From: Oculatellaceae cyanobacterium bins.114
Lineage (GTDB): Bacteria > Cyanobacteriota > Cyanobacteriia > Elainellales > Elainellaceae
NCBI GenBank assembly: GCA_033764315.1
Contig: JANRJA010000046.1
Span: forward strand, 1-32,593
Length of the DNA stretch: 32,593 nucleotides
Direction: 5' to 3'
Shown here: positions 13,358 through 29,101 of the stretch, in pieces
Position numbering within the stretch: position 1 is the first letter of the stretch
How the letters are laid out: each line of letters starts with the position of its first letter
The notes under the pieces: model-generated
The model's database searches: none
What the model saw: only the letters and a program-made list of their open reading frames with translations
Told to the model about the DNA's origin: nothing
Translations under genes and position numbers: made by a program

Positions 13358-14266
13358 CTATCGCAGAGCAAACCGACGAACCGCAAATAAACTACCCATT
13401 AAACCCACTGAACCGCCTAAACCCAGCAACACCAAGGGCAACAACAGCACTTTATCAGCACTCAACTTCAACCCGTCAGCTAAAAACCGGATGAAATCTG
13501 CCTGTTCTGATAGCAAACTTCCTATAAATTCTTGAGTTCCGGTGATCATGCCCCAGGCTAACAAAGCCCCAACAACCCCAAAAGTGAGTCCCTGCAAAAT
13601 AAAGGGCATGTAGATCCAGGTGGTGGTCGCCCCTACCAATTGCATCACCTCAATTTCTCGGCGACGTGCCATAACAATGAGCCGAATCGTGGTTGTAATG
13701 ACAGCGATCGCCGTTAAAGTCAGCACCGTTGTAATGCCAAAACTAACCCAATTTAAACCTTGATTGAGTTGGGCAATGCGTTGCACTGCCTCCGCCACAT
13801 ATTGCACATCATCAATACCCTGCATCTGTTTCAGTTTTTCTGCCAGAGCAGGAACTTGATCGGGCGAACTCGCTCTCACCTTTAACTCATCCACCAGAGG
13901 ATTGCCATTGAGCTGCTGAGTTGCACCCCGAATATCAGAAATCCCCATGTCTTTGACGAGGTTTTCCCAGGCTTCCTCTTTTGACACCACCGTTACGGCT
14001 GTCACTTCTGGAATCACAGCCACCGAGGGTTTGAGAACATCCCCTTGCACCCCGCTTTCGAGATAAACCGATACTTCGAGTTGGCTGCCAAACTGGTTGA
14101 GCAAGCCTTCAAACTGCCAGGAGGCTTGTAAGCTAATGCCAAACAAAAACAGCAGCACAGTCACAGTACTAACGGCTGCCCAATTCATCCAACCTCCCCG
14201 CTTTAGCCCTAGCAGGGTTTCACGTAACAAGTAATCTGATTTTGTGAGAAGTTGCAGCACGCTCAT
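13358..14266 (-). CDS. ftsX: Cell-division ABC permease FtsX
   Basis: Four TM segments, large periplasmic loop, TTIRLIVMARRREIEVMQLVGAT...PFILQG signature. Confidence 0.9.
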   Translation of the reverse strand: MSVLQLLTKSDYLLRETLLGLKRGGWMNWAAVSTVTVLLFLFGISLQASWQFEGLLNQFGSQLEVSVYLESGVQGDVLKPSVAVIPEVTAVTVVSKEEAWENLVKDMGISDIRGATQQLNGNPLVDELKVRASSPDQVPALAEKLKQMQGIDDVQYVAEAVQRIAQLNQGLNWVSFGITTVLTLTAIAVITTTIRLIVMARRREIEVMQLVGATTTWIYMPFILQGLTFGVVGALLAWGMITGTQEFIGSLLSEQADFIRFLADGLKLSADKVLLLPLVLLGLGGSVGLMGSLFAVRRFALR

Positions 14267-15450: not shown

Positions 15451-16833
15451 ATGACCGAACCTGTTGCTGAAACTCCTGTTCTCAGGCAACTGCCCTCGGT
15501 GAATGCAGCCAGTTCAGCAGATGTGACCTATCCCATCACAGAGGAGATGACCATCGGGCGTGATCCCCGCTGTCAAATCGTGCTGGACTCAATGGTTTAT
15601 GGTGGCGTTTCGCGTCAACACGCCCAAGTCAGTCTCGTCACCGGAAGTTCTAACACCTGGCAACTCTGTGATCTCAGTAGTGCTAACGGCACCTTTTTAA
15701 ACGGTCAGCGATTACAGGGATGTCAAGTCCTATATCCGGGCGATCGCATTGCGTTGGGGCAAAATGGCCCCGAATTTATCTTTGAACAACAAGCTGTGTC
15801 ACGGTCAACGAGTGTTGAGAATGCATCACCAGACCCAGTCCTCCCCTCAGTAGCAGCATTTGCAGCCACCCGCCGCCCCGGAGAACCGTTTCCTAACAGC
15901 GTTCCCAATGATGTCACGTTAAGCCAACTGTTTCCCATCGTCTCAACTGGGCGAGAGCTGACCCAAAAAGCCTATCTGGTTCCGGCGATTTTAACGATCG
16001 CATTTGTGATCTTGATGTTTATCGCCGTTGGCACCCCCGTCTTCTTTAACTTGTTACTAGCCGCCTATATTGCGGGTGCAGCCTACTATTTTGTGTATCA
16101 GCTCTGTGGCAAACGCAAACCGTGGTGGTTGTTAGTCTCGGTTGGCATTATGACCATGCTGTTATTGGTCAGCCCGGTGCTAGAGCTGTTTATTGTTGTA
16201 TTTCGCGGCATCTTACCCGGAGCCATTCCAGAGGGTGAACCCTCCGGTAATTTCTTTAATCTGTTGGTAGGCATGTTTTTTGGCGCAGGACTGATGGAGG
16301 AGTTGCTCAAAGCCCTCCCCGTCTTGCTGGTCTATTTTATTGGCACTCAACTGCGATCGCCTCTCAGGGAACGGATCGGAGTCTGGGAGCCATTGGATGG
16401 AATCTTATTGGGGACGGCTTCAGCAGTGGGTTTCACCTTGCTAGAGACGTTAGGACAATATGTACCCGCGATCATCAACGATGTCACCCTCCAGGCCGGA
16501 GAAGGAACTGGAGAACTAGTCGGGTTGCAACTGCTGATCCCTCGCGTTCTCGGCTCGATCGCCGGACACATGGCATACAGCGGCTATCTAGGCTATTTCA
16601 TCGGACTCAGTGTCCTTAAGCCTTCTAAACGGTGGCAAATTTTAGGGGTGGGTTATCTCACAGCGGCGGGGCTTCACGCTCTGTGGAATGCGACTGGCAG
16701 TATCAGTTTTTTGATCCTGGCAGTCGTTGGTATTTTGTCCTATGCATTTCTGGCGGCAGCAATTCTCAAGGCAAGAGCACTCTCACCCACGCGATCGCAA
16801 AATTTTGCAACTCGGTTCTCAAGATTGCCTTAA
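15451..16833 (+). CDS. FHA domain + PrsW-family intramembrane glutamic/metalloprotease
   Basis: FHA: TIGRDP...VSRQHA...DLSSANGTFLNG. PrsW motifs: EELLK, GFTLLE, GHMAYSG, LHALWN. About 8-9 TM segments. Confidence 0.9.
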   Translation: MTEPVAETPVLRQLPSVNAASSADVTYPITEEMTIGRDPRCQIVLDSMVYGGVSRQHAQVSLVTGSSNTWQLCDLSSANGTFLNGQRLQGCQVLYPGDRIALGQNGPEFIFEQQAVSRSTSVENASPDPVLPSVAAFAATRRPGEPFPNSVPNDVTLSQLFPIVSTGRELTQKAYLVPAILTIAFVILMFIAVGTPVFFNLLLAAYIAGAAYYFVYQLCGKRKPWWLLVSVGIMTMLLLVSPVLELFIVVFRGILPGAIPEGEPSGNFFNLLVGMFFGAGLMEELLKALPVLLVYFIGTQLRSPLRERIGVWEPLDGILLGTASAVGFTLLETLGQYVPAIINDVTLQAGEGTGELVGLQLLIPRVLGSIAGHMAYSGYLGYFIGLSVLKPSKRWQILGVGYLTAAGLHALWNATGSISFLILAVVGILSYAFLAAAILKARALSPTRSQNFATRFSRLP

Positions 16834-16842
16834 ACGGCTCAA

Positions 16843-17457
16843 TTAGGATTGGTCGGTTGAGAGTTGAGCAATCGCGTAACGGGCGATCGCTAAACTCAGT
16901 CTCGCTTGCTCAATACTAGATAGCTCATCCCACGGTGTATGGCGTAACGAGTTGAGCGTTGTCTCAAGCGTCTCAGTGTCGGCTCCTCGCATAGCATAGG
17001 CAAAGGGACGGGCCAACACCTGCAAATCATCTTCTCCCCAACTGGGTAGCAGGTCTTGAACGCACATCACCAGCTTATCGGCTAACGAACTATTAACGGC
17101 TACGACCTGGTGTGCATGCTGCACAATGTCTTCTAAAAACTGTTGAGGGATCTGGGCGGCACATCGTTCAAACAGTTGATTCATCAATGAACGCATTGTC
17201 GTCTGTTCAACAGGTGCAATGGCAGACCATATCTGATCGACATGAGCGGCCAACGCCTTACCTTGAACCGCGATTTCTTCAGCCATCCAACCGGTTGCAA
17301 TCACTTCTTGCTCTAGATCAGCAAAGTAGGCATCTGTGCCCAACTCCGCTGGATTCCAAGGATAGGGTGTATCAGCGTGCAAAATTAATTGCAACAGTTC
17401 TAACTCAGCCTGTGCTTGGAAGGGTAAGAAGGATGGACGGGTCGAATCGCTGGTCAT
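16843..17457 (-). CDS. Hypothetical helical protein, PatU3-like
   Basis: 204-aa ORF directly downstream of the CHAT-FHA gene. Segments PYPWN, IPQQFLEDIVQHAHQVVAVNSSLADKLVMCVQDLLP and WDELSSIEQARLSLAIARYAIAQL resemble the core of PatU3 as recalled from memory. Confidence 0.7.
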   Translation of the reverse strand: MTSDSTRPSFLPFQAQAELELLQLILHADTPYPWNPAELGTDAYFADLEQEVIATGWMAEEIAVQGKALAAHVDQIWSAIAPVEQTTMRSLMNQLFERCAAQIPQQFLEDIVQHAHQVVAVNSSLADKLVMCVQDLLPSWGEDDLQVLARPFAYAMRGADTETLETTLNSLRHTPWDELSSIEQARLSLAIARYAIAQLSTDQS

Positions 17458-17618
17458 AGGGTTACTCCTGAATCATTGCTGGTCCTGATGGACACCGATA
17501 GCTACACCTGAGGGTTTGGTCGTTCCGTAAGGTTTTTTGTAATTTCAGTCAATTGGCGGAGAACGTCAATAAGGGGCAAATAGTGGGTCTGTCTTCGGAT
17601 AGAAACCAAGACACATTT

Positions 17619-19268
17619 TTATCCGTCAATGACAAACTCTAGGGCAGAGCTGTGACCAAATCGGAGCTGAGTTTTAGAGAGCAGGGGCACCTCTTGATGA
17701 TGCACGCGATGCCATCCATCCTGCATTAAAACAAGCGTCCCAAAACGGGAATAGTCTTTCAGGAAATACGTGTGTTGTCCATCAGCACTGGTAAACGAGT
17801 CGCGATAGAAAATTTCAGCGTGAACGCGCGAAACCCCAGGTTCTCGAATCACCAGATCATTGCCTTCACGACTGCCCACTCGCATAATGCCGCCGTGCAC
17901 CTGCCAAGTGCGACTCGGTGAGGTGAGCGATCGCAAGAAAGCCGTTGGAGTTTTGCGCCCAATCCAACTAGGAGAATTTTCAGGGATCTCTGTCACCCCT
18001 TCTGTCATTGGTTTGACCAACTCTCCATTAAATTCAGGATGCATGTAGAGGACAGGCAATGTCCAGGCAGGTTGGTTGAATTTGTAGAGGGTGAGCAAAT
18101 GTTGACGCGCGATCGCCACAGCCTGATCAATCGGGGCACGCTCTGACAACGCCTGAGTAAATTCACGAATAAAACTCAATGCCTCTTGATCGGCGATCGA
18201 GTCTCGCATCCCCAACACCGCTGGCACTCCGTGGTGAATCAACACTTCTGCCAGACTACTACGAGGAATAGCGCGATCGCCATCGTGATCAGGTTGTGCC
18301 CCCCAGCAGGTATTAAACACAGCTAGCTTGACCTGACATCGGGTCAGGACTTGAGCCAATTCTGTGCCATTGAGTGGCGCATTAGGTCTCACAAATAATA
18401 AGCCGCCATCTGGCGCAGGAACGCCATGCCCCGAATAAAACAAAACGTTGTAACTGCCACTTTCCAGTTCATCAATCAACTCTCCAGGAGTGGGTTGCAC
18501 CAGAGTTTTGACCTGGCAGGGAACCGGACTAGAAAAGGCATTTCCTGAGTTAGCATCTGCTGCTGCTTCTAACAGATCTGCCAACATTTTGGCTTCCTGT
18601 TCCAGCTTCAGCAATTTGTCCCCTGTGGGAGTCGCCGCTGGATCATAAACATCCATTTCTTCGTCTTGCCCTAAGACCAACAAGATTTGTAAGGAGTGCT
18701 CAACGCGCAACAAGGGCAGTGCATCAACGTCACTAGTCGTTCGACTAAATAGGAGTTGTTGACTGAGGGAGACAGCCTGCTTCCCCGGTTGGGGTTGCAT
18801 AATCTCCCAGGGAACAGAAATTAAATCTGGATCGCGCACCTCTAACCGAATTCGCAGCGGTTTGCCCTGACCGATGGCAATCCCCTGACTCCGCTCTAAA
18901 CTAATTTGAATGGGGCTTTCGTCAAACAACCAATGCCACAAGTTGACCCCTAAGTTCTGCATCAACAAACCTGTTTTACTGGTCGGTTGCCCCAAGGGTG
19001 GCGTCGCCGGATCAGGAGGCGAGGTAATGGGGCTAATCACCGGTGGAGAGGTACGGGGAAATCGAGGTACGGGCGGCAGACTTCGTATCGAAAACATATT
19101 TTGCCAGTTGTGCCAGGCTTCCGTCAGCAACTGAGTCCAACGGCGATCATGGTGAACATATCCCCCTGGATAAGGAGCTTGTAACACCCAAATCGCATAA
19201 TGATCTGGCTCAGCAGCCGTTAAAGGAGCGATCGCCAGACTTAAGCAAGGACTTTCAGGCAAAAACAT
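17619..19268 (-). CDS. CHAT (caspase/HetF-like) protease with C-terminal FHA domain
   Basis: LISVPWEIM, LFYSGHG (catalytic His), AVFNTCWG (catalytic Cys), GVPAVLGMR...IAD, WTLPVLY. FHA: VGSR...VSRVHAEI...LKDYSRFGT. ATG at 19268 preferred over the ORF-track start at 19292. Confidence 0.88.
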   Translation of the reverse strand: MFLPESPCLSLAIAPLTAAEPDHYAIWVLQAPYPGGYVHHDRRWTQLLTEAWHNWQNMFSIRSLPPVPRFPRTSPPVISPITSPPDPATPPLGQPTSKTGLLMQNLGVNLWHWLFDESPIQISLERSQGIAIGQGKPLRIRLEVRDPDLISVPWEIMQPQPGKQAVSLSQQLLFSRTTSDVDALPLLRVEHSLQILLVLGQDEEMDVYDPAATPTGDKLLKLEQEAKMLADLLEAAADANSGNAFSSPVPCQVKTLVQPTPGELIDELESGSYNVLFYSGHGVPAPDGGLLFVRPNAPLNGTELAQVLTRCQVKLAVFNTCWGAQPDHDGDRAIPRSSLAEVLIHHGVPAVLGMRDSIADQEALSFIREFTQALSERAPIDQAVAIARQHLLTLYKFNQPAWTLPVLYMHPEFNGELVKPMTEGVTEIPENSPSWIGRKTPTAFLRSLTSPSRTWQVHGGIMRVGSREGNDLVIREPGVSRVHAEIFYRDSFTSADGQHTYFLKDYSRFGTLVLMQDGWHRVHHQEVPLLSKTQLRFGHSSALEFVIDG

Positions 19269-19382
19269 GTAAAAAGATAATTTAAAACCCAAATACGATC
19301 AGTTTTTTACCAGTCTATACGGTATCGGGATGCAGGAGAACGAAGGCATAGACTAACTCCAAGGATGAGATCAGATAAAACC

Positions 19383-21839
19383 TTATGAGACAGCTGGCTC
19401 AGAGGTCACCGGAATGGTTGGTCCACCACAGACACCCCGCTCTTGAGGAGTCAGTGTGAGCTTAGGACTCACTAGACGTAATACTTCGGTTTCTTGAATC
19501 CAGCCAGTACCTCCAGGTTGCAACGGCTGGGGAGAGGGCACTGCTGCCGGATTGGGAGAGGGAGGTTCTAGCCCAGTGCCAGTTCCATTAGCAGGAGTTC
19601 CCGTCGGTTGAACAGGGACAGGGGTCACAGGCAAATTGACAAAATTGGAAAAAGCCGGAGAGGGCTCAGGGGCAATAACCGCATTGTCTGGGGTTGAACA
19701 CACTTTCAGTTCTACCCATCGTTCTTGGGGGTTAGTTGCACTGCCTCCTATCACTTGCACAATGCTACCCGACAGCACTGAACTAGCACTGACAATTGGC
19801 GGCTGCAACCCACCTGGTTTAGACAACACAATCATAGTCCCTTGATCTAGGGAACCAGAGGCGGACGGAGGATTGATTTGGAAAAATGAGCCAATGGCTA
19901 ACGGAGTCGATGGGGTAATAGGGGTAGATGATGTCGTAGGGCTAGGTGATGTAGTGGGGCTAGACGATGGGGCAGCCAACGGATTTAATCCAACCAGGCT
20001 ATCTATCCAACCTCGAAACGATAGATTGAGAGCATAGGCTAGCAGGCCGCCGCCACCAATGAGTAAGAGAATACCCAACAGCAACGGAAATACATGAAAT
20101 TTTTTAGTCTGACGAGTCGGTAATACTTGAGTTTTGGCGATCGCTGGAGCCGCTACATTAGAGCTATCCGGAATCATCGTCGTAGCCTCAGAGCCAGTTA
20201 GAGGCAGAGACTTAACTAGTGCTGGTGGTGTGTCTCGGGCTGACTGATTGGCAACTACCTGAATGTGAAATAGCCCCACTGTTACGTTATCGTGCCCATT
20301 CCGGGTGTTGGCCAGGTTAACCAATTGTTGGCTCACCGCACCGACCTCGGCTTTAGCATCTAACAAAGGCAATAGCGTCGTGTCCCAGTTTTCTTCAACG
20401 CGATCATTATCGCTTAACCCATCAGAGCACAACAAGAAGACAGTGTCTTCATCCAAAACAAAACGCTGAACCGTAGGATGCAAAACTGCAGAGGAACCCA
20501 TCCCCAAAGCTTGCACTAGAGAGCCGGCACTGGGCTGCTGCAACGCCTCTCGATAGGAACTGTAACCCAGCCGCACTTCTCGTGAGGCCACATCATCATC
20601 TTGAGTCACTTGACGGCATCCGTAGTGATTGATCCAATAGGCACGGCTATCCCCTACATGGATAATGTAAAGCTCATGGGCACGCACCAACCCCATGACT
20701 AACGTAGTGCCCATCCGCTGTCGATCAAACCGCTGTTCACTGTCATTGCGTTGGCTAATTAGATCATTTGCGACACATACTGCTTTCTCCAGTGCTAGTG
20801 TCAGCGATGAAGCATCTAAGGTCTCCAGAGCAAGGGCTTGCACCTGCTGCCGCACCGCCTGAATCGCCAGATTCGATGCTACATCACCCCCTTGATGTCC
20901 ACCAATGCCATCACACACAATAACGAGGACATTATCTAAAGCAGATTGAAGCGTATGAGTCGTGACAGTGCCACCAGGAGGATAACAGGCATCTTCGTTA
21001 CGTTGCCGACTGGGTCCTTGGTCGGTGCGGGTCGCTATATGAATTTGGTAGGAGAGCGATCGCCCCACTTGAGTGAGTAGCCCATCTAGTTGTCCGATCA
21101 ACTGTTCCGCATTGCGAATTTGCCCCTGTATTAATTGTTGGCAAACCTGAGTTAACCCTTTGACAATCTCAGGTCGAGCCTGACTGACCCATGTTGACCA
21201 CAGCTGACCTAACTGAGCTAGAGTCAACGTTTCCGCTTTGTCTGATTTGTCTGACCGCAGCTCTAGTAACCGCAGTAGTGCCCCCTCAACGCGCACAAGC
21301 TCTGGAGCCAACACACTAGAGACAGCCTGTTGACTAGCCAGTGGGTGCCAGAGATGGGCAATCTGCCAAAGCCAGTTAAGTTGTCGAATGGCGGGTGCTT
21401 CTTGCCAAACGTCGGTTAAGGCAGGTAACAACTGTGGCTCAACCACTTCAGCGGTCGGCTGAGATGCACCATCTAACACCAAACCAGAGCTATCAAACGC
21501 CGCCTGATCGAGCAAAACCAACGGAGAGGAATTTGCCAGAGCCACTACATCATAGATTTGAGGCACATGGATTCGGTAGGGAGATAACCTCAGATAGGCT
21601 ACAAATTCTGATGGGATCTCCGTTGGAGCAGCGGAATAAAGACCGGGCTTAGTATCTAAAAAAAGTCGAGGGCTTTTACATAGATAGCGATCGCCCAATA
21701 TTTCTCCAGAACGAAATCGCCCAACCCCCTCACCCACCGCCCATAAATAGTGGTGCGGCAACAGAGTGCGACACTTCTGGCAGAATTTATAGCTCTCTGG
21801 ATTAGGGGTTTGACAGGTGTAGTTAGGGCAATAAAGCAT
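19383..21839 (-). CDS. PP2C/PPM Ser/Thr phosphatase with N-terminal Zn ribbon and kinase-like region, TM helix and Pro-rich extracytoplasmic tail (PrpJ-like architecture)
   Basis: CPNYTC...CQKC; PP2C motifs RQRNEDA, VCDGIGGH, MGTT, HVGDSRAY, LLCSDGLSD, GHDNVT; TM FPLLLGILLLIGGGGLLAYAL. Confidence 0.9.
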   Translation of the reverse strand: MLYCPNYTCQTPNPESYKFCQKCRTLLPHHYLWAVGEGVGRFRSGEILGDRYLCKSPRLFLDTKPGLYSAAPTEIPSEFVAYLRLSPYRIHVPQIYDVVALANSSPLVLLDQAAFDSSGLVLDGASQPTAEVVEPQLLPALTDVWQEAPAIRQLNWLWQIAHLWHPLASQQAVSSVLAPELVRVEGALLRLLELRSDKSDKAETLTLAQLGQLWSTWVSQARPEIVKGLTQVCQQLIQGQIRNAEQLIGQLDGLLTQVGRSLSYQIHIATRTDQGPSRQRNEDACYPPGGTVTTHTLQSALDNVLVIVCDGIGGHQGGDVASNLAIQAVRQQVQALALETLDASSLTLALEKAVCVANDLISQRNDSEQRFDRQRMGTTLVMGLVRAHELYIIHVGDSRAYWINHYGCRQVTQDDDVASREVRLGYSSYREALQQPSAGSLVQALGMGSSAVLHPTVQRFVLDEDTVFLLCSDGLSDNDRVEENWDTTLLPLLDAKAEVGAVSQQLVNLANTRNGHDNVTVGLFHIQVVANQSARDTPPALVKSLPLTGSEATTMIPDSSNVAAPAIAKTQVLPTRQTKKFHVFPLLLGILLLIGGGGLLAYALNLSFRGWIDSLVGLNPLAAPSSSPTTSPSPTTSSTPITPSTPLAIGSFFQINPPSASGSLDQGTMIVLSKPGGLQPPIVSASSVLSGSIVQVIGGSATNPQERWVELKVCSTPDNAVIAPEPSPAFSNFVNLPVTPVPVQPTGTPANGTGTGLEPPSPNPAAVPSPQPLQPGGTGWIQETEVLRLVSPKLTLTPQERGVCGGPTIPVTSEPAVS

Positions 21840-23708: not shown

Positions 23709-26312
23709 ATGGCGAGAGCTCAACAGGGAAACACACTGCGGACGGCAAGGACTACGGTGGTCGGTCCGACAGCCAGAACATTACGAGGAGCTCTTTCTGC
23801 CACAGATGGCAATGACTTTTGGAAGTTTACTCTGGCGGTTCGTAGCACCTTTAACCTCAATCTAACCGGCATTGGCAGAACGGCGAATGCAGATGCCTTG
23901 CTGCTTAACAGTCGAGGAGGCACCATTCGGGCGTTAAGAAGCCCTAAAAACCGACCAGAGCGGCTCTCCAACCTATCCCTTGACCCTGGCACTTATTACG
24001 TTCGAGTCCAACGCCGCACTGGCACAACCCGATATGCCCTCAGTTTGGCGGCCTCTCCGATCTCTACTCCGACTCCGACTCCAACCCCCGGTGTGACTCC
24101 GACTCCAACTCCTGGGGTCACTCCGACTCCTAGCCCTACTGATAATGGGGGCAACTCATTTGCCGCATCCTCAGCCTTAGTACCGGGCATTGTTCCAGCC
24201 GTTGACTTTAACACCCGCAGCCTCACCGATTTTGTCGGAGATGTTGATCCACAAGACATCTTTAGCTTTAGCCCCACCACCGCTGGCAATTTGTCATTGC
24301 AATTGACCGGGTTAACTGCCGATGCCAGTATTCAGCTATTTGATGCCAACCAGAGCTTGATTGCCTCCGGGGATGCCAACGACAGCCTATTGCAAAACAT
24401 TGCACAACCCGGCGGCACTTATTACATTCGAGTTTTCCAAGCAGCAGCAGGTAACAACACCAACTACACTCTTAACTTGGCGTTGACCCCAATCGATACC
24501 GTTGGCGATACGGCGGCAGCAGCAACCGTGATTAACGATTTGGTCGCCACAACACCGCCCGCCGCCCGTCAACCAACAGCCGTTCGCACTGAGTTTGTCA
24601 GCGGCAGTGATATCGATTTTTATCGCTTTGACTTAACCGCTCAAAACTTTGTCGGCATTGACTTGTTGAACCAGAGTGGCAATGCTGATCTGGAACTCTA
24701 TAAAGACAATGCGGGTACACCCACTTTATTGTTGAGTTCAACACGGGGGGTAGGTGCTCCTGAGCAAATCGGTGGAACTCTAAGCGCAGGCACTTACTAC
24801 ATTCGAGTAGCCGCCGGAGCAGGCGCAACAGGGTCTCCCTACAGCTTCACCATGTATGCTGAATCAACTTTGGGACTCCCCACTATTACTCGTGACATTG
24901 CCTTTGGCGCAACGGGTGGGCAGGCCAGTTCACAACCCCGTGACATCACAAATGTGAGTGGTACGGTCTACTTTGCAGCCAACGAACCTGGAATCGGTGC
25001 GGGTCTGTGGAGAAGCACCGGGGGAACAGCAGGGGGCAACTTAGATCAGACGGTTAAAATTCGTAACTTTAGTAGCCTTTCTAACTTTGTTGCTGCTGGA
25101 AACAACCTTTATTTCGTAGCCGATGATGGGCAGAGTGGTACGGAACTCTGGAAGTATGACGGTAATACTGCCATTCAGTTGACTAACAACCCTGGAAGTG
25201 CCTTTGTCACCAACCTCACGGCTGTTGGCGATTTCCTCTACTTCACCCTGTCTGATGTGAATGCACTCACCGATCAACGATTGTGGCGCAGCAACGGGAC
25301 AGCCGTCGGAACAGCCGAAGTTGGAGATCCAAATACAGCGATCGCTGAGGCGGGAGTACTTCCCAATAATCTGGTTGCCGTTGGCAATGATCTGTATTAC
25401 GCCGCCACTGACTCAGCGACAGTTAATAACAAGGGCAGAGAGGTCTGGAAGATTACTGGTGCGGGTACAAACACCCCTGGCACAGCCGCGATTGTGCTTG
25501 ATCTAGAACCGGGTTCTAGCGGTTCTGCTCCAACTCGCCTAACTGCGATCGGCACGAATCTCTTCTTTGTCGCTGAAACAATTGGAGATAGCGTTGGTAC
25601 AGAATTGCGCCGACTTGACAGCAATGGCACCCTCACAACCTTTGATGTCAGCGCAGTCAATGATCCGTTTGGGGATTCTGTAAACCCGATCGCGACTGCC
25701 CCCCTCGTCTGGAACATTGTAGAAATGGGTGGCAATGTCTACTTCGCCGCCGATGGTGGAGACGCCAAAGGTGAAGAGTTGTGGCGAGTGCCTGTGAATG
25801 GAGCTGCTGGCAGTGGAACTCGTGTCACTGATATCCGGTTAAATACGGGTAGCTCTAACCCCCGTAACCTGACGGTGCTCAACAATAAGCTGTTCTTCTT
25901 GGCAGATGATGGCACGAACGGGGTTGAGTTGTATGTGTATGATGGTACGACCACAACCTTGCTCACGGGAGGTCGCCCAGCCGATGCCCCTGATATTCAA
26001 GAACTGACCACATCAGGCACCAACCTCTACTTCACGATGGGGTCTGGAAGCGGTAACTCGGCAACGGGTCGAGAACTGTGGGTCAGCGATGGCACGGTCG
26101 TTGGAACTGAGATCGTCTTTGATATTCGGCCTGGTGGGACGGTTAACCCTGGTACGCCAGGTGATCCTACTGCGGATCCACCGATTCCGCCTACCCCTCA
26201 AACGTTTACAGCTAACACCTCTAACCCAACTGATTTGACCGATGCTAGCGGCAGATTATTCTTTGCAGCAGACAACGGACTGAATGGGGTGGAATTGTGG
26301 ACGTTGATTTAA
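23709..26312 (+). CDS. Surface/extracellular protein: three PPC-type beta-sandwich domains, PT linker, ELWxxDGT beta-propeller repeats
   Basis: Repeated D-x-Y/F-x-F...ADxxL...GTYYxRV modules. LYFVADDGQSGTELWKYDG, GRELWVSDGTVVGT, LFFAADNGLNGVELW. Confidence 0.88.
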   Translation: MARAQQGNTLRTARTTVVGPTARTLRGALSATDGNDFWKFTLAVRSTFNLNLTGIGRTANADALLLNSRGGTIRALRSPKNRPERLSNLSLDPGTYYVRVQRRTGTTRYALSLAASPISTPTPTPTPGVTPTPTPGVTPTPSPTDNGGNSFAASSALVPGIVPAVDFNTRSLTDFVGDVDPQDIFSFSPTTAGNLSLQLTGLTADASIQLFDANQSLIASGDANDSLLQNIAQPGGTYYIRVFQAAAGNNTNYTLNLALTPIDTVGDTAAAATVINDLVATTPPAARQPTAVRTEFVSGSDIDFYRFDLTAQNFVGIDLLNQSGNADLELYKDNAGTPTLLLSSTRGVGAPEQIGGTLSAGTYYIRVAAGAGATGSPYSFTMYAESTLGLPTITRDIAFGATGGQASSQPRDITNVSGTVYFAANEPGIGAGLWRSTGGTAGGNLDQTVKIRNFSSLSNFVAAGNNLYFVADDGQSGTELWKYDGNTAIQLTNNPGSAFVTNLTAVGDFLYFTLSDVNALTDQRLWRSNGTAVGTAEVGDPNTAIAEAGVLPNNLVAVGNDLYYAATDSATVNNKGREVWKITGAGTNTPGTAAIVLDLEPGSSGSAPTRLTAIGTNLFFVAETIGDSVGTELRRLDSNGTLTTFDVSAVNDPFGDSVNPIATAPLVWNIVEMGGNVYFAADGGDAKGEELWRVPVNGAAGSGTRVTDIRLNTGSSNPRNLTVLNNKLFFLADDGTNGVELYVYDGTTTTLLTGGRPADAPDIQELTTSGTNLYFTMGSGSGNSATGRELWVSDGTVVGTEIVFDIRPGGTVNPGTPGDPTADPPIPPTPQTFTANTSNPTDLTDASGRLFFAADNGLNGVELWTLI

Positions 26313-27919: not shown

Positions 27920-29101
27920 CTAAGAGGAGGGTGGGGGAAGCAGAGGACGACGTTGTAGCAACAAAACCTCAGCTTCACTACTTTCACGAGCAACCCGAAT
28001 CAGCAAGGCAGCAGACACTAAACTAGAAATCATAGAACTGCCCCCATAACTAAACATCGGCAGAGGCAAGCCTGTAGTCGGCAGGGCACCTGTTGCAACC
28101 CCAATGTTTAGCAGTGATTGACCAACCAACAAAATGACAATGCCGATCGCCACGAGTTGATAAACAGGCTGTCGTGCTTTGAGAGCGACCTTTAACCCCA
28201 CTGTTGCATAAGCACCTAATAACAGCATTAACACTAAACTGCCGATTAAGCCAAATTCTTCTGCAAAGACCGCAAAGATAAAGTCTGTGTATTGAATAGG
28301 CAGATAAAACAGTTTTTGTTGAGACATGCCATAGCCCACCCCCCAAAAACCGCCAGAGCCGATCGCCAACAAACTCTGAATCAATTGATATCCGTTTTGA
28401 GTTGGGTCAGCCCACGGATTTAAAAAAGACATGACCCGCTCTCGTTGATAGTCTCGAATGCTGATGCTAAGCGTAGCGGTTAGCAAACCTGCGATCGCGG
28501 TTCCCACAAGATAGCGATAGGGCAAGCCTGAGGCAAGAGCAATTAACCATAACACAATGCCACATAACGCAGCAGTACTCAGGTTAGGTTGCAGCAAGAT
28601 GCCCACAATCAACACCACAAAAATACCTAACCACACCAGTCGAGATTGCTGAGACAGTTGATCCCACCGACCAAAAATACGAGCCGCTTGTAGGATTAAA
28701 AAGGGTTTGATCAATTCCGAAGGTTGTAGAAATGGTAGAGGGCCGATCGACACCCATCGACTCGCTCCATTGACCGGATCGGCGAACCCTGGGATCAGCG
28801 TTAGGAGAATCAGCCCTAAAAACAGCAGCATGAACCAGTCTGCCATGCCCAAGATGTAGCGAATTGGGGAATGGACAATCAGACTAAAGGCAATTAACCC
28901 AACCACAACCCAGATTAATTGACGCTTAAAATAATAAAGCCCATCGCCAGATTCACTGTCTGCCACCGCATAAGAGGCCGAAAACAGCACGATTAGCCCC
29001 ATAAACAGCCAGAGCAATGTCAGCCAGCGCAAAATTCGGGCTTCTAATGCCCAATCTTTGACAGATGAATCGAGGAAGGGAATAAACTGGCGAAGATTCA
29101 C
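27920..29101 (-). CDS. ftsW: SEDS-family peptidoglycan glycosyltransferase FtsW
   Basis: NGASRWV...QPSELIK, LLQPNLSTA, GYQLIQSLLAIGSGG, KLFYLPIQYTDFIFAVFAEE, PTTGLPLPMFSYGGSS. Confidence 0.9.
   Translation of the reverse strand: MNLRQFIPFLDSSVKDWALEARILRWLTLLWLFMGLIVLFSASYAVADSESGDGLYYFKRQLIWVVVGLIAFSLIVHSPIRYILGMADWFMLLFLGLILLTLIPGFADPVNGASRWVSIGPLPFLQPSELIKPFLILQAARIFGRWDQLSQQSRLVWLGIFVVLIVGILLQPNLSTAALCGIVLWLIALASGLPYRYLVGTAIAGLLTATLSISIRDYQRERVMSFLNPWADPTQNGYQLIQSLLAIGSGGFWGVGYGMSQQKLFYLPIQYTDFIFAVFAEEFGLIGSLVLMLLLGAYATVGLKVALKARQPVYQLVAIGIVILLVGQSLLNIGVATGALPTTGLPLPMFSYGGSSMISSLVSAALLIRVARESSEAEVLLLQRRPLLPPPSS

Follow-up and report, generated by a model that had tools for sequence, protein, structure and literature searches.

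In Anabaena sp. PCC 7120, HetF and PatU3 are an enzyme and its substrate: HetF, described as a membrane protein of ~830 amino acids (aa) with a transmembrane segment and periplasmic TPRs, cleaves PatU3 between R117 and S118, within the residues T114-N-Y-R-S-P-E-T121 (PMC9457339). PatU3 is 258 residues long and is considered a likely anti-sigma factor of sigma-HetZ; PatU5 and PatU3 of Anabaena together correspond to a single PatU protein in most filamentous cyanobacteria (PMC13342950). A gene pair of similar build is found on the minus strand of a 32,593-nucleotide stretch of DNA (the window) from Oculatellaceae cyanobacterium bins.114 (GenBank assembly GCA_033764315.1, contig JANRJA010000046.1), and consists of a gene for a CHAT-FHA protease followed by a gene for a small protein of 204 aa. 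The products of these two genes are probably a protease and a partner dedicated to it, resembling HetF-PatU3 in build, with the partner most likely cleaved after R157 (probability of about 0.6). To our knowledge, HetF-PatU3, through which cell division is linked to cell differentiation, is the only CHAT protease-substrate pair that has been characterized in cyanobacteria. A literature search, in which matches for HetF and FHA were judged by title and abstract, found no paper on the 204-aa family or on CHAT-FHA proteins in cyanobacteria.

The CHAT-FHA protein can be classified as a HetF-like clan CD cysteine protease rather than as HetF itself, because it matches the NCBIfam HetF model (NF045509, 836 positions) at positions 68-388 only, with 145.7 bits (E 1.7e-42) against a cut-off of 1200 bits. 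Two Pfam domains were recognized in its open reading frame (ORF) of 557 aa, which extends to a TTG at 19292: CHAT (PF12770) at aa 117-404 (E 1.3e-19, 71.2 bits, gathering cut-off 24) and FHA (PF00498) at aa 471-546 (E 5.2e-10, 40 bits, cut-off 20.7). The start chosen here is the ATG at 19268. The catalytic residues, His281 and Cys321 when numbered from this ATG, are invariant in 29/29 aligned homologues, and the intact CHAT dyad reported in an earlier reading of the DNA (the initial annotation) is thus confirmed; the codon positions that it gave for the two residues, and the three motifs that it picked out in the small protein, are exact on the minus strand. The canonical FHA loop is S-x-N-G-T. 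In the 29-sequence alignment of the protease, R463 and H483 of the FHA domain are nearly invariant and S480, S507, G510 and T511 are invariant, with the consensus FSRYGT; the phosphate-binding loops have kept the Arg and the Ser/His, and an aromatic residue replaces the usual Asn.

The close association of the two genes is not restricted to this genome. Linkage was scored with phmmer, using the proteins of the window, in a set of 80 metagenome loci carrying the small family, some of which are near-identical, so the counts are not independent. A CHAT and/or FHA homologue lies directly upstream, on the same strand, in 60 of the 62 loci with at least 1000 bp of upstream sequence (the other 18 having less), so that the side-by-side genes noticed in the window are tightly linked. 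Of the 48 loci with at least 4500 bp upstream, 30 have a PP2C homologue further upstream in the same orientation, and a convergent FHA-PrsW gene lies no more than 600 bp downstream in 31 of 62 loci (those with at least 1600 bp downstream). The PP2C and FHA-PrsW proteins would be optional accessories, found in about half to two thirds of the loci.

The partner is also predicted to bind in the active site of the protease. Complex prediction from paired alignments (A3 and A4, with 29 protease and 29 partner sequences) gave scores of 0.73, 0.73 and 0.74 in three runs, against 0.00 for the best of three controls, with a contact agreement of at least 85% between runs and a predicted local distance difference test (pLDDT) score of 76 for the partner. 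In the benchmark, 58 of 80 solved complexes attained a score of this size, as did 2 of 110 mismatched pairs; these counts are approximate here, since custom alignments were used. The predicted interface comprises residues 57-59, 61, 97-100, 279-281, 319-321, 354, 357-363, 396 and 398-400 of the protease and residues 140-141, 143-144, 146-148, 150-151, 154-159, 180 and 182 of the partner; in the model it contains both the catalytic His281 and Cys321 and the most conserved block of the partner, whose invariant segment DLQVLARPFAYAMRG is placed on the catalytic His/Cys, and the FHA domain lies outside it. We know of no solved complex between a CHAT protease and a PatU-like protein (no dedicated search was made), and it therefore seems unlikely that the prediction merely reproduces a known structure.

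The small protein matched no family in a scan of Pfam and NCBIfam, but it has many relatives. A word-indexed search yielded 352 homologues of ~200 aa, which are all cyanobacterial and 193-225 aa long among the matches listed (120), and an exhaustive profile search of 1.84 billion representatives (E <= 0.001) yielded 284 representatives at 50% identity, with lengths of ~100-290 aa, most of them ~190-230 aa, among the matches listed (150 of 284). On the basis of these sequences, the protein belongs to an old family whose full-length members have ~200 aa and N-terminal helices of their own. The possibility that the 204-aa ORF is a broken or truncated remnant of patU was considered and rejected, as the family is full-length and conserved. 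There is one copy of the gene per genome in the 51 carriers among 91 sampled Cyanobacteriia. The AlphaFold2 (AF2) model of the protein is all-helical, with eight helices and a pLDDT of 68 that dips at residues 151-170. Conservation across 257 sequences is concentrated at D144 (99%), L145 (98%), R150 (99%), P151 (98%), M156 (94%) and R157 (98%), and the last helix, W176...ARYA, is also conserved; no Thr is conserved in the family.

A true patU gene was identified elsewhere in the same genome. A search with the NCBIfam model for HetZ-related protein 2 (NF037965, HetZ_rel_2; the neighbouring models NF037966 and NF037967 were checked and are HetP and SemiSWEET) revealed three HetZ-like genes. HetZ-related protein 2 itself is encoded on contig C251 (12069-13169); another of the three, on contig C65, is overlapped by a downstream ORF of 347 aa. 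This ORF is patU, its homologues including proteins named PatU by their depositors. True PatU proteins contain the elements PPLFPWETE, PMPEAVL..CQ.VVQSSL.EG.KLVQAVE.LFP and Y..AT..QQM.LSLLAAREI, in the same order as the motifs PYPW (aa 31), IPQQFLEDIV...DLLP (aa 103) and WDELSS...AIAQL (aa 176) of the small protein. Profile-profile alignment with hhalign of the small family (alignment A1, 34 sequences) and PatU (A2, 35 sequences) paired residues 102-200 of the small protein with residues 149-244 of PatU over 91 columns (P 9.7e-5, probability 58%). With enriched alignments (257 and 143 sequences) the match extended to 95 columns (P 4.8e-5, probability 68%); P values of 0.096 and 0.14 were obtained when one side was reversed and, as expected, 1.5e-5 when both were. 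Searches with hidden Markov models (HMMs) point in the same direction: the PatU HMM scored up to 26.1 bits (median 10.1) on 269 members of the small family, with at most 6.4 bits on reversed and 9.8 bits on 2690 shuffled sequences, and the small-family HMM scored up to 18.9 bits (median 12.0) on 120 PatU sequences, with 5.5 (reversed) and 9.0 (shuffled) for the controls. In a genome from another family, the PatU profile matched the small-family gene at E 3.5e-6.

The structural evidence is consistent with this relationship. In a structure search of the ESM Atlas, the second and third rows, immediately after the protein's own family, were PatU-named clusters matched over residues 88/89-204 (scores 210 and 209; template modelling scores by query 0.46 and 0.44), and the next row scored 128. 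The AF2 models have helices at residues 152-166, 172-181, 188-200 and 225-243 in PatU and at 105-119, 125-134, 142-157 and 181-203 in the small protein; a nine-strand beta domain (residues 244-342) is present in the PatU model only, the small protein ending after its last helix. Residues ~101-199 of the small protein are thus homologous, at a remote level, to the central helical region of PatU, and the remainder of the protein is not demonstrably related to PatU. The best local hhalign match of the N-terminal parts, YPWNP of the small protein against LFPWET of PatU, had a P of 0.035 against 0.078 and 0.096 for reversed sequences, so the match of the PYPW motif, which had been proposed as the counterpart of the PatU PW motif, is not significant on its own. 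The initial annotation had also regarded the protein as a truncated PatU3 paralogue. The relationship to PatU over ~95 columns and the missing C-terminal beta domain survive from this proposal; the truncation does not, because a gene from a full-length family of ~200 aa is not a truncated copy. The initial annotation had called for a profile or structural match to PatU3; a match to PatU was obtained with hhalign and in the ESM Atlas, where PatU clusters are the nearest outside the protein's own family, and Foldseek against the PDB gave no match. As the real patU of this genome follows hetZ on another contig, the small protein is not a PatU orthologue but a distant paralogue; its gene follows the CHAT-FHA gene instead of lying directly downstream of hetZ.

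The alignment with PatU also suggests where the partner may be cut. PatU proteins have a conserved P-x-R-[S/G] immediately after the LNxLAGLVL helix; in the PatU of this genome the arginine is R204, and it flanks a loop (205-211) with a pLDDT below 50 in the AF2 model. The number of residues after R117 in the 258-aa PatU3 is 141, and 134-150 residues follow the conserved Arg in 22 PatU sequences. In two PatU proteins from another family the sequence at the conserved Arg is PAYRS, close to the N-Y-R-S of PatU3. Given this length arithmetic and the PAYRS look-alike, the mapped HetF cut site in PatU3 probably corresponds to the conserved Arg of PatU. In the small protein, R157 (AYAMR|G) is aligned to this Arg by hhalign, and the HMMER alignments place it at R157 or one residue off. 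A search with the back-translated residues of the PatU3 cut site gave no match in 401 Cyanobacteriia genomes, none in the two genomes of one genus, and 29 chance matches, none of them cyanobacterial, in a broader set of contigs.

The two pairs therefore resemble each other in that a CHAT clan CD cysteine protease is associated with a PatU-type protein, and in that the partner keeps the central helices of PatU and the Arg that would correspond to the HetF cut site. They differ in architecture, gene arrangement and distribution. Unlike HetF, the protease described here has 549 aa and a C-terminal FHA domain, and has neither a transmembrane segment nor TPRs. The hetF and patU3 genes are not neighbours, whereas the CHAT-FHA and small genes almost always are. 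The partner has neither the N-terminal region nor the beta domain of PatU and is not encoded after hetZ, and the pair also occurs in families without PatU or HetF. Compared with PatU itself, the small protein has ~95 residues of remote homology, which are helical there, and the loop with the conserved Arg, but it is much shorter (~200 aa vs ~345 aa), has no beta-sandwich domain and is not adjoined by hetZ. A further characteristic of PatU/PatU3 is binding to sigma-HetZ and Ftn6. A more distant parallel is provided by Craspase, the TPR-CHAT protease of type III-E CRISPR systems, which cuts Csx30, a protein that holds a sigma factor. Craspase is likewise a CHAT protease, with a dedicated, co-encoded substrate that is a regulator tied to a sigma factor; unlike Craspase, the pair in the window has no CRISPR context, and its activation would involve phospho-signalling rather than a target RNA.

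The distribution of the small protein was determined in 91 Cyanobacteriia genomes from 31 families, with HetF matches (E <= 1e-80) sampled in 46 genomes. The small family has 51 carriers, PatU 57 and HetZ-related protein 2 (E <= 1e-60) 52. The small family and PatU occur together in 48 genomes, the small family alone in 3, PatU alone in 9 and neither in 31; for the small family and HetZ-related protein 2 the corresponding numbers are 48, 3, 4 and 36, with agreement in 84 of the 91 genomes, and two of the three genomes with the small protein only are 61% and 67% complete. When the count is made by family, an identical set of 21 of the 31 families contains the small protein and HetZ-related protein 2. 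PatU is absent from three of these (f13, f19 and f31), two of which were searched for HetF and lack it, and two other families (f22 and f26) have PatU and HetF but neither the small protein nor HetZ-related protein 2. A strong HetF match was obtained in 29 of the 46 genomes, in agreement with PatU in 44/46 and with the small protein in 38/46. The family-level distribution of the small protein thus matches that of HetZ-related protein 2, and not that of PatU or HetF, although these co-occurrence counts are leads rather than tests, given the non-independence of related genomes. Family f21 is represented by four genomes in the sample, and in each of them patU and the gene for HetZ-related protein 2 share a strand and are 1-3 kb apart (Table 1); elsewhere the two are far apart. 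At two other loci (L060 and L061, in genomes G402 and G403), patU is split into PatU5-like and PatU3-like ORFs outside the heterocyst formers, the split piece in G402 being 100% identical to a protein of Kovacikia minuta, so Anabaena is not alone in having a split patU.

The genome carrying the window has patU and hetZ but gave no HetF match at E <= 1e-80; its best match to the CHAT region of HetF is the CHAT-FHA protein. Since the assembly, in 251 contigs, has a completeness of 90.7% and HetF is present in both relatives sampled from the same family, the absence is probably an assembly gap. Contig C125 of the same genome (L002, 1489-2946, minus strand) encodes a 485-aa protein with a start that looks TIR-like by eye; after a membrane-like stretch, its C-terminal portion matches the HetF model at positions 544-831 (E 3e-54). 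This match suggests that the outer, TPR-like half of HetF has been joined to a different N-terminal module.

The following mechanism can be proposed for the pair. A soluble, HetF-like CHAT-FHA protease, probably cutting after arginine, would receive the D144-G158 segment of the small protein in its active-site cleft. The most likely event would be a cut after R157, detaching the last conserved helix (W176...ARYA) from the body of the protein, and cleavage would inactivate the partner, releasing whatever the intact partner restrains. The presence of an FHA domain in the protease, and of genes for a PP2C phosphatase and an FHA-PrsW protease nearby, suggests that the timing is set by Ser/Thr phosphorylation. 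By analogy with PatU3, and given its distribution, the leading guess for the partner's own target is HetZ-related protein 2. The small protein might then be an anti-sigma-like keeper of HetZ-related protein 2, freed by a phospho-gated CHAT-FHA cut after R157, in a circuit parallel to HetF/PatU/sigma-HetZ; this wider scheme is tentative, and considerably more doubtful than the protease-partner relationship itself. Since three families that have no PatU contain both the small protein and HetZ-related protein 2, such a circuit would be older and wider than the heterocyst-linked one.

Several observations weigh against the reading of the pair as a HetF-PatU3-like protease and cleaved partner. The link between R117 and the conserved Arg comes from length arithmetic and a look-alike motif, not from the PCC 7120 sequence, and a four-residue alignment gap just before the Arg leaves R150 as a weaker alternative to R157. 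The lack of a conserved Thr in the small family makes it probable that the FHA domain reads some other phospho-protein, and not the small protein. The homology signal is faint in the genome of origin, where the small protein scores 11.3 bits with the PatU HMM (best shuffled control 9.8) and PatU scores 9.1 bits with the small-family HMM (best shuffled control 9.0), and where the A1 profile has no second match at E <= 10; the PatU profile missed the small gene in all 51 sampled carrier genomes at E <= 0.01, and hhalign assigns a probability of no more than 58-68%. Confidence in the AF2 model of the small protein is only middling, and Foldseek found no match to it in the PDB at E <= 0.001. Finally, two loci with ~2-2.5 kb of upstream sequence (L075 and L120) have no CHAT/FHA homologue adjoining the small gene, and genome G408 has a frameshifted small gene with no CHAT gene next to it. 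At this last locus (L063, 4037-4769), the gene lies in two frames, as ORFs of 116 and 154 aa, flanked by genes for an HtrA-like protease and an unrelated 457-aa protein.

The nature of the partnership can also be explained in other ways. The small protein might be a pseudo-substrate inhibitor or chaperone-like keeper of the CHAT-FHA protein, the real substrate being elsewhere; the ARPFAYAMRG segment would then block the active site until the arrival of a signal, such as an FHA-bound phospho-protein. In favour of this, the predicted interface spans the catalytic His and Cys; the complex model cannot discriminate between substrate and inhibitor. Near-constant co-encoding with the protease gene first and a single copy per genome is usual for enzyme-inhibitor pairs, and conservation of at least 94% at six positions of the docking segment suits a tight binding surface as well as it does a cut site. 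However, the nearest characterized pair, HetF-PatU3, is an enzyme with its substrate (PMC9457339), and the Arg aligned with R157 would, if mapped as above, be the cut site of that substrate, so this explanation seems rather unlikely. It is less probable still that the small protein resembles PatU because both have converged on, or retained, a short motif recognized by HetF-type proteases, with generic helical similarity elsewhere. Both families are indeed most conserved around the Arg loop and its flanking helices, and the low scores of the own-genome pair (9-11 bits) and the modest hhalign probability would fit such an origin. The similarity nevertheless covers ~95 columns and includes four helices that agree in length and spacing, the top-scoring HMMER alignments fall for the most part before the Arg loop, in the helices with ..P..L...CQ.VV.S.L....KLVQ.V...P, and a structure search that is independent of the alignments placed PatU clusters nearest after the protein's own family, over residues 88-204.

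A role for the true PatU must also be considered. The CHAT-FHA protease could act on PatU, replacing HetF or working beside it, and the small protein could be a decoy or competitor that tunes PatU turnover. The genome has PatU and no HetF match at the threshold used, its best match to the HetF CHAT region is the CHAT-FHA protein, and PatU and the small protein share the same kind of Arg loop. Against this, HetF has probably just escaped assembly, and across the sampled families the small protein tracks HetZ-related protein 2 rather than PatU or HetF, being present in three families that lack PatU and missing from two that have it; such action on PatU is highly improbable. Cleavage of a dedicated partner by the CHAT-FHA protease remains the preferred reading.

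The coordinates of the pair and of its neighbours are given in Table 1. The small gene and the CHAT-FHA gene are separated by 161 bp. A scan of positions 16600-19500 for promoters and terminators gave counts equal to those expected from shuffled sequences, with no site on the minus strand in the 161-bp gap, and co-transcription of the two genes is thus neither shown nor excluded. The PP2C protein encoded upstream matches Pfam PP2C_2 (E 1.2e-13) and NCBIfam PRK14559 (E 2.3e-84); ~270 residues precede its phosphatase domain, including the N-terminal 4-Cys element (weak matches, E 0.004-0.007), and ~290 come after it, with a membrane-like stretch and then a Pro/Ser/Thr-rich tail. The convergent gene encodes a protein with PrsW-protease (E 1.1e-35) and FHA (E 9e-18) domains in Pfam. 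No further HetF/PatU3 pair was found in the window; an 867-aa ORF (23709-26312, plus strand) encodes an ELWxxDGT-repeat protein (E 8.9e-52), in which aa 59-107, close to the N-terminus, weakly match a model for a type IX secretion system (T9SS) sorting domain (E 1.3e-5). Two cell-division genes, FtsX-like (13358-14266, minus strand) and FtsW/RodA-like (27920-29101, minus strand), lie less than 15 kb from the pair, which may be due to chance.

Table 1. Positions of the gene pair, its parts and its neighbours in the window, and of the linked HetZ-related protein 2 and patU genes in family f21
Feature	Position	Strand	Evidence
204-aa PatU-like small protein	16843..17457	-	ORF; no Pfam/NCBIfam family; all-helical AF2 model
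Small-protein residues 101-199, remotely homologous to the PatU central region (own-genome PatU ~148-243)	16861..17157	-	hhalign, HMM, ESM Atlas, helix spacing
Invariant segment D144-G158 (DLQVLARPFAYAMRG), predicted docking/cleavage segment	16984..17028	-	conservation, complex prediction, translation checked
R157 codon of the small protein	16987-16989	-	
CHAT-FHA protease gene, 549 aa from ATG	17619..19268	-	Pfam, NCBIfam, 29-sequence alignment
CHAT domain with catalytic His and Cys	18081..18944	-	Pfam, codon check, alignment
Catalytic His codon (CAT) in YSGHG	18426-18428	-	
Catalytic Cys codon (TGC) in FNTCWG	18306-18308	-	
FHA domain of the protease	17655..17882	-	Pfam E 5.2e-10
818-aa PP2C-type Ser/Thr phosphatase with N-terminal 4-Cys element	19383..21839	-	Pfam PP2C_2, NCBIfam PRK14559
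460-aa FHA-PrsW intramembrane metalloprotease, convergent with the small gene	15451..16833	+	Pfam
HetZ-related protein 2/patU loci of family f21 (genome, contig, position)	G021 C1 159571-162665; G045 C15 7743-10886; G084 C17 7326-11642; G066 C143 17426-22424		

The two genes thus look like a second, co-encoded pair of this kind in cyanobacteria, found in 51 of the 91 sampled genomes, for which a docking segment and a cut site can be predicted. The pair provides a testable system for studying how CHAT proteases choose their targets and which functions the PatU fold has apart from heterocyst control. Should the partner turn out to hold a HetZ-like sigma factor as well, the combination of protease, anti-sigma factor and sigma factor, gated by Ser/Thr phosphorylation, would be a widespread design.

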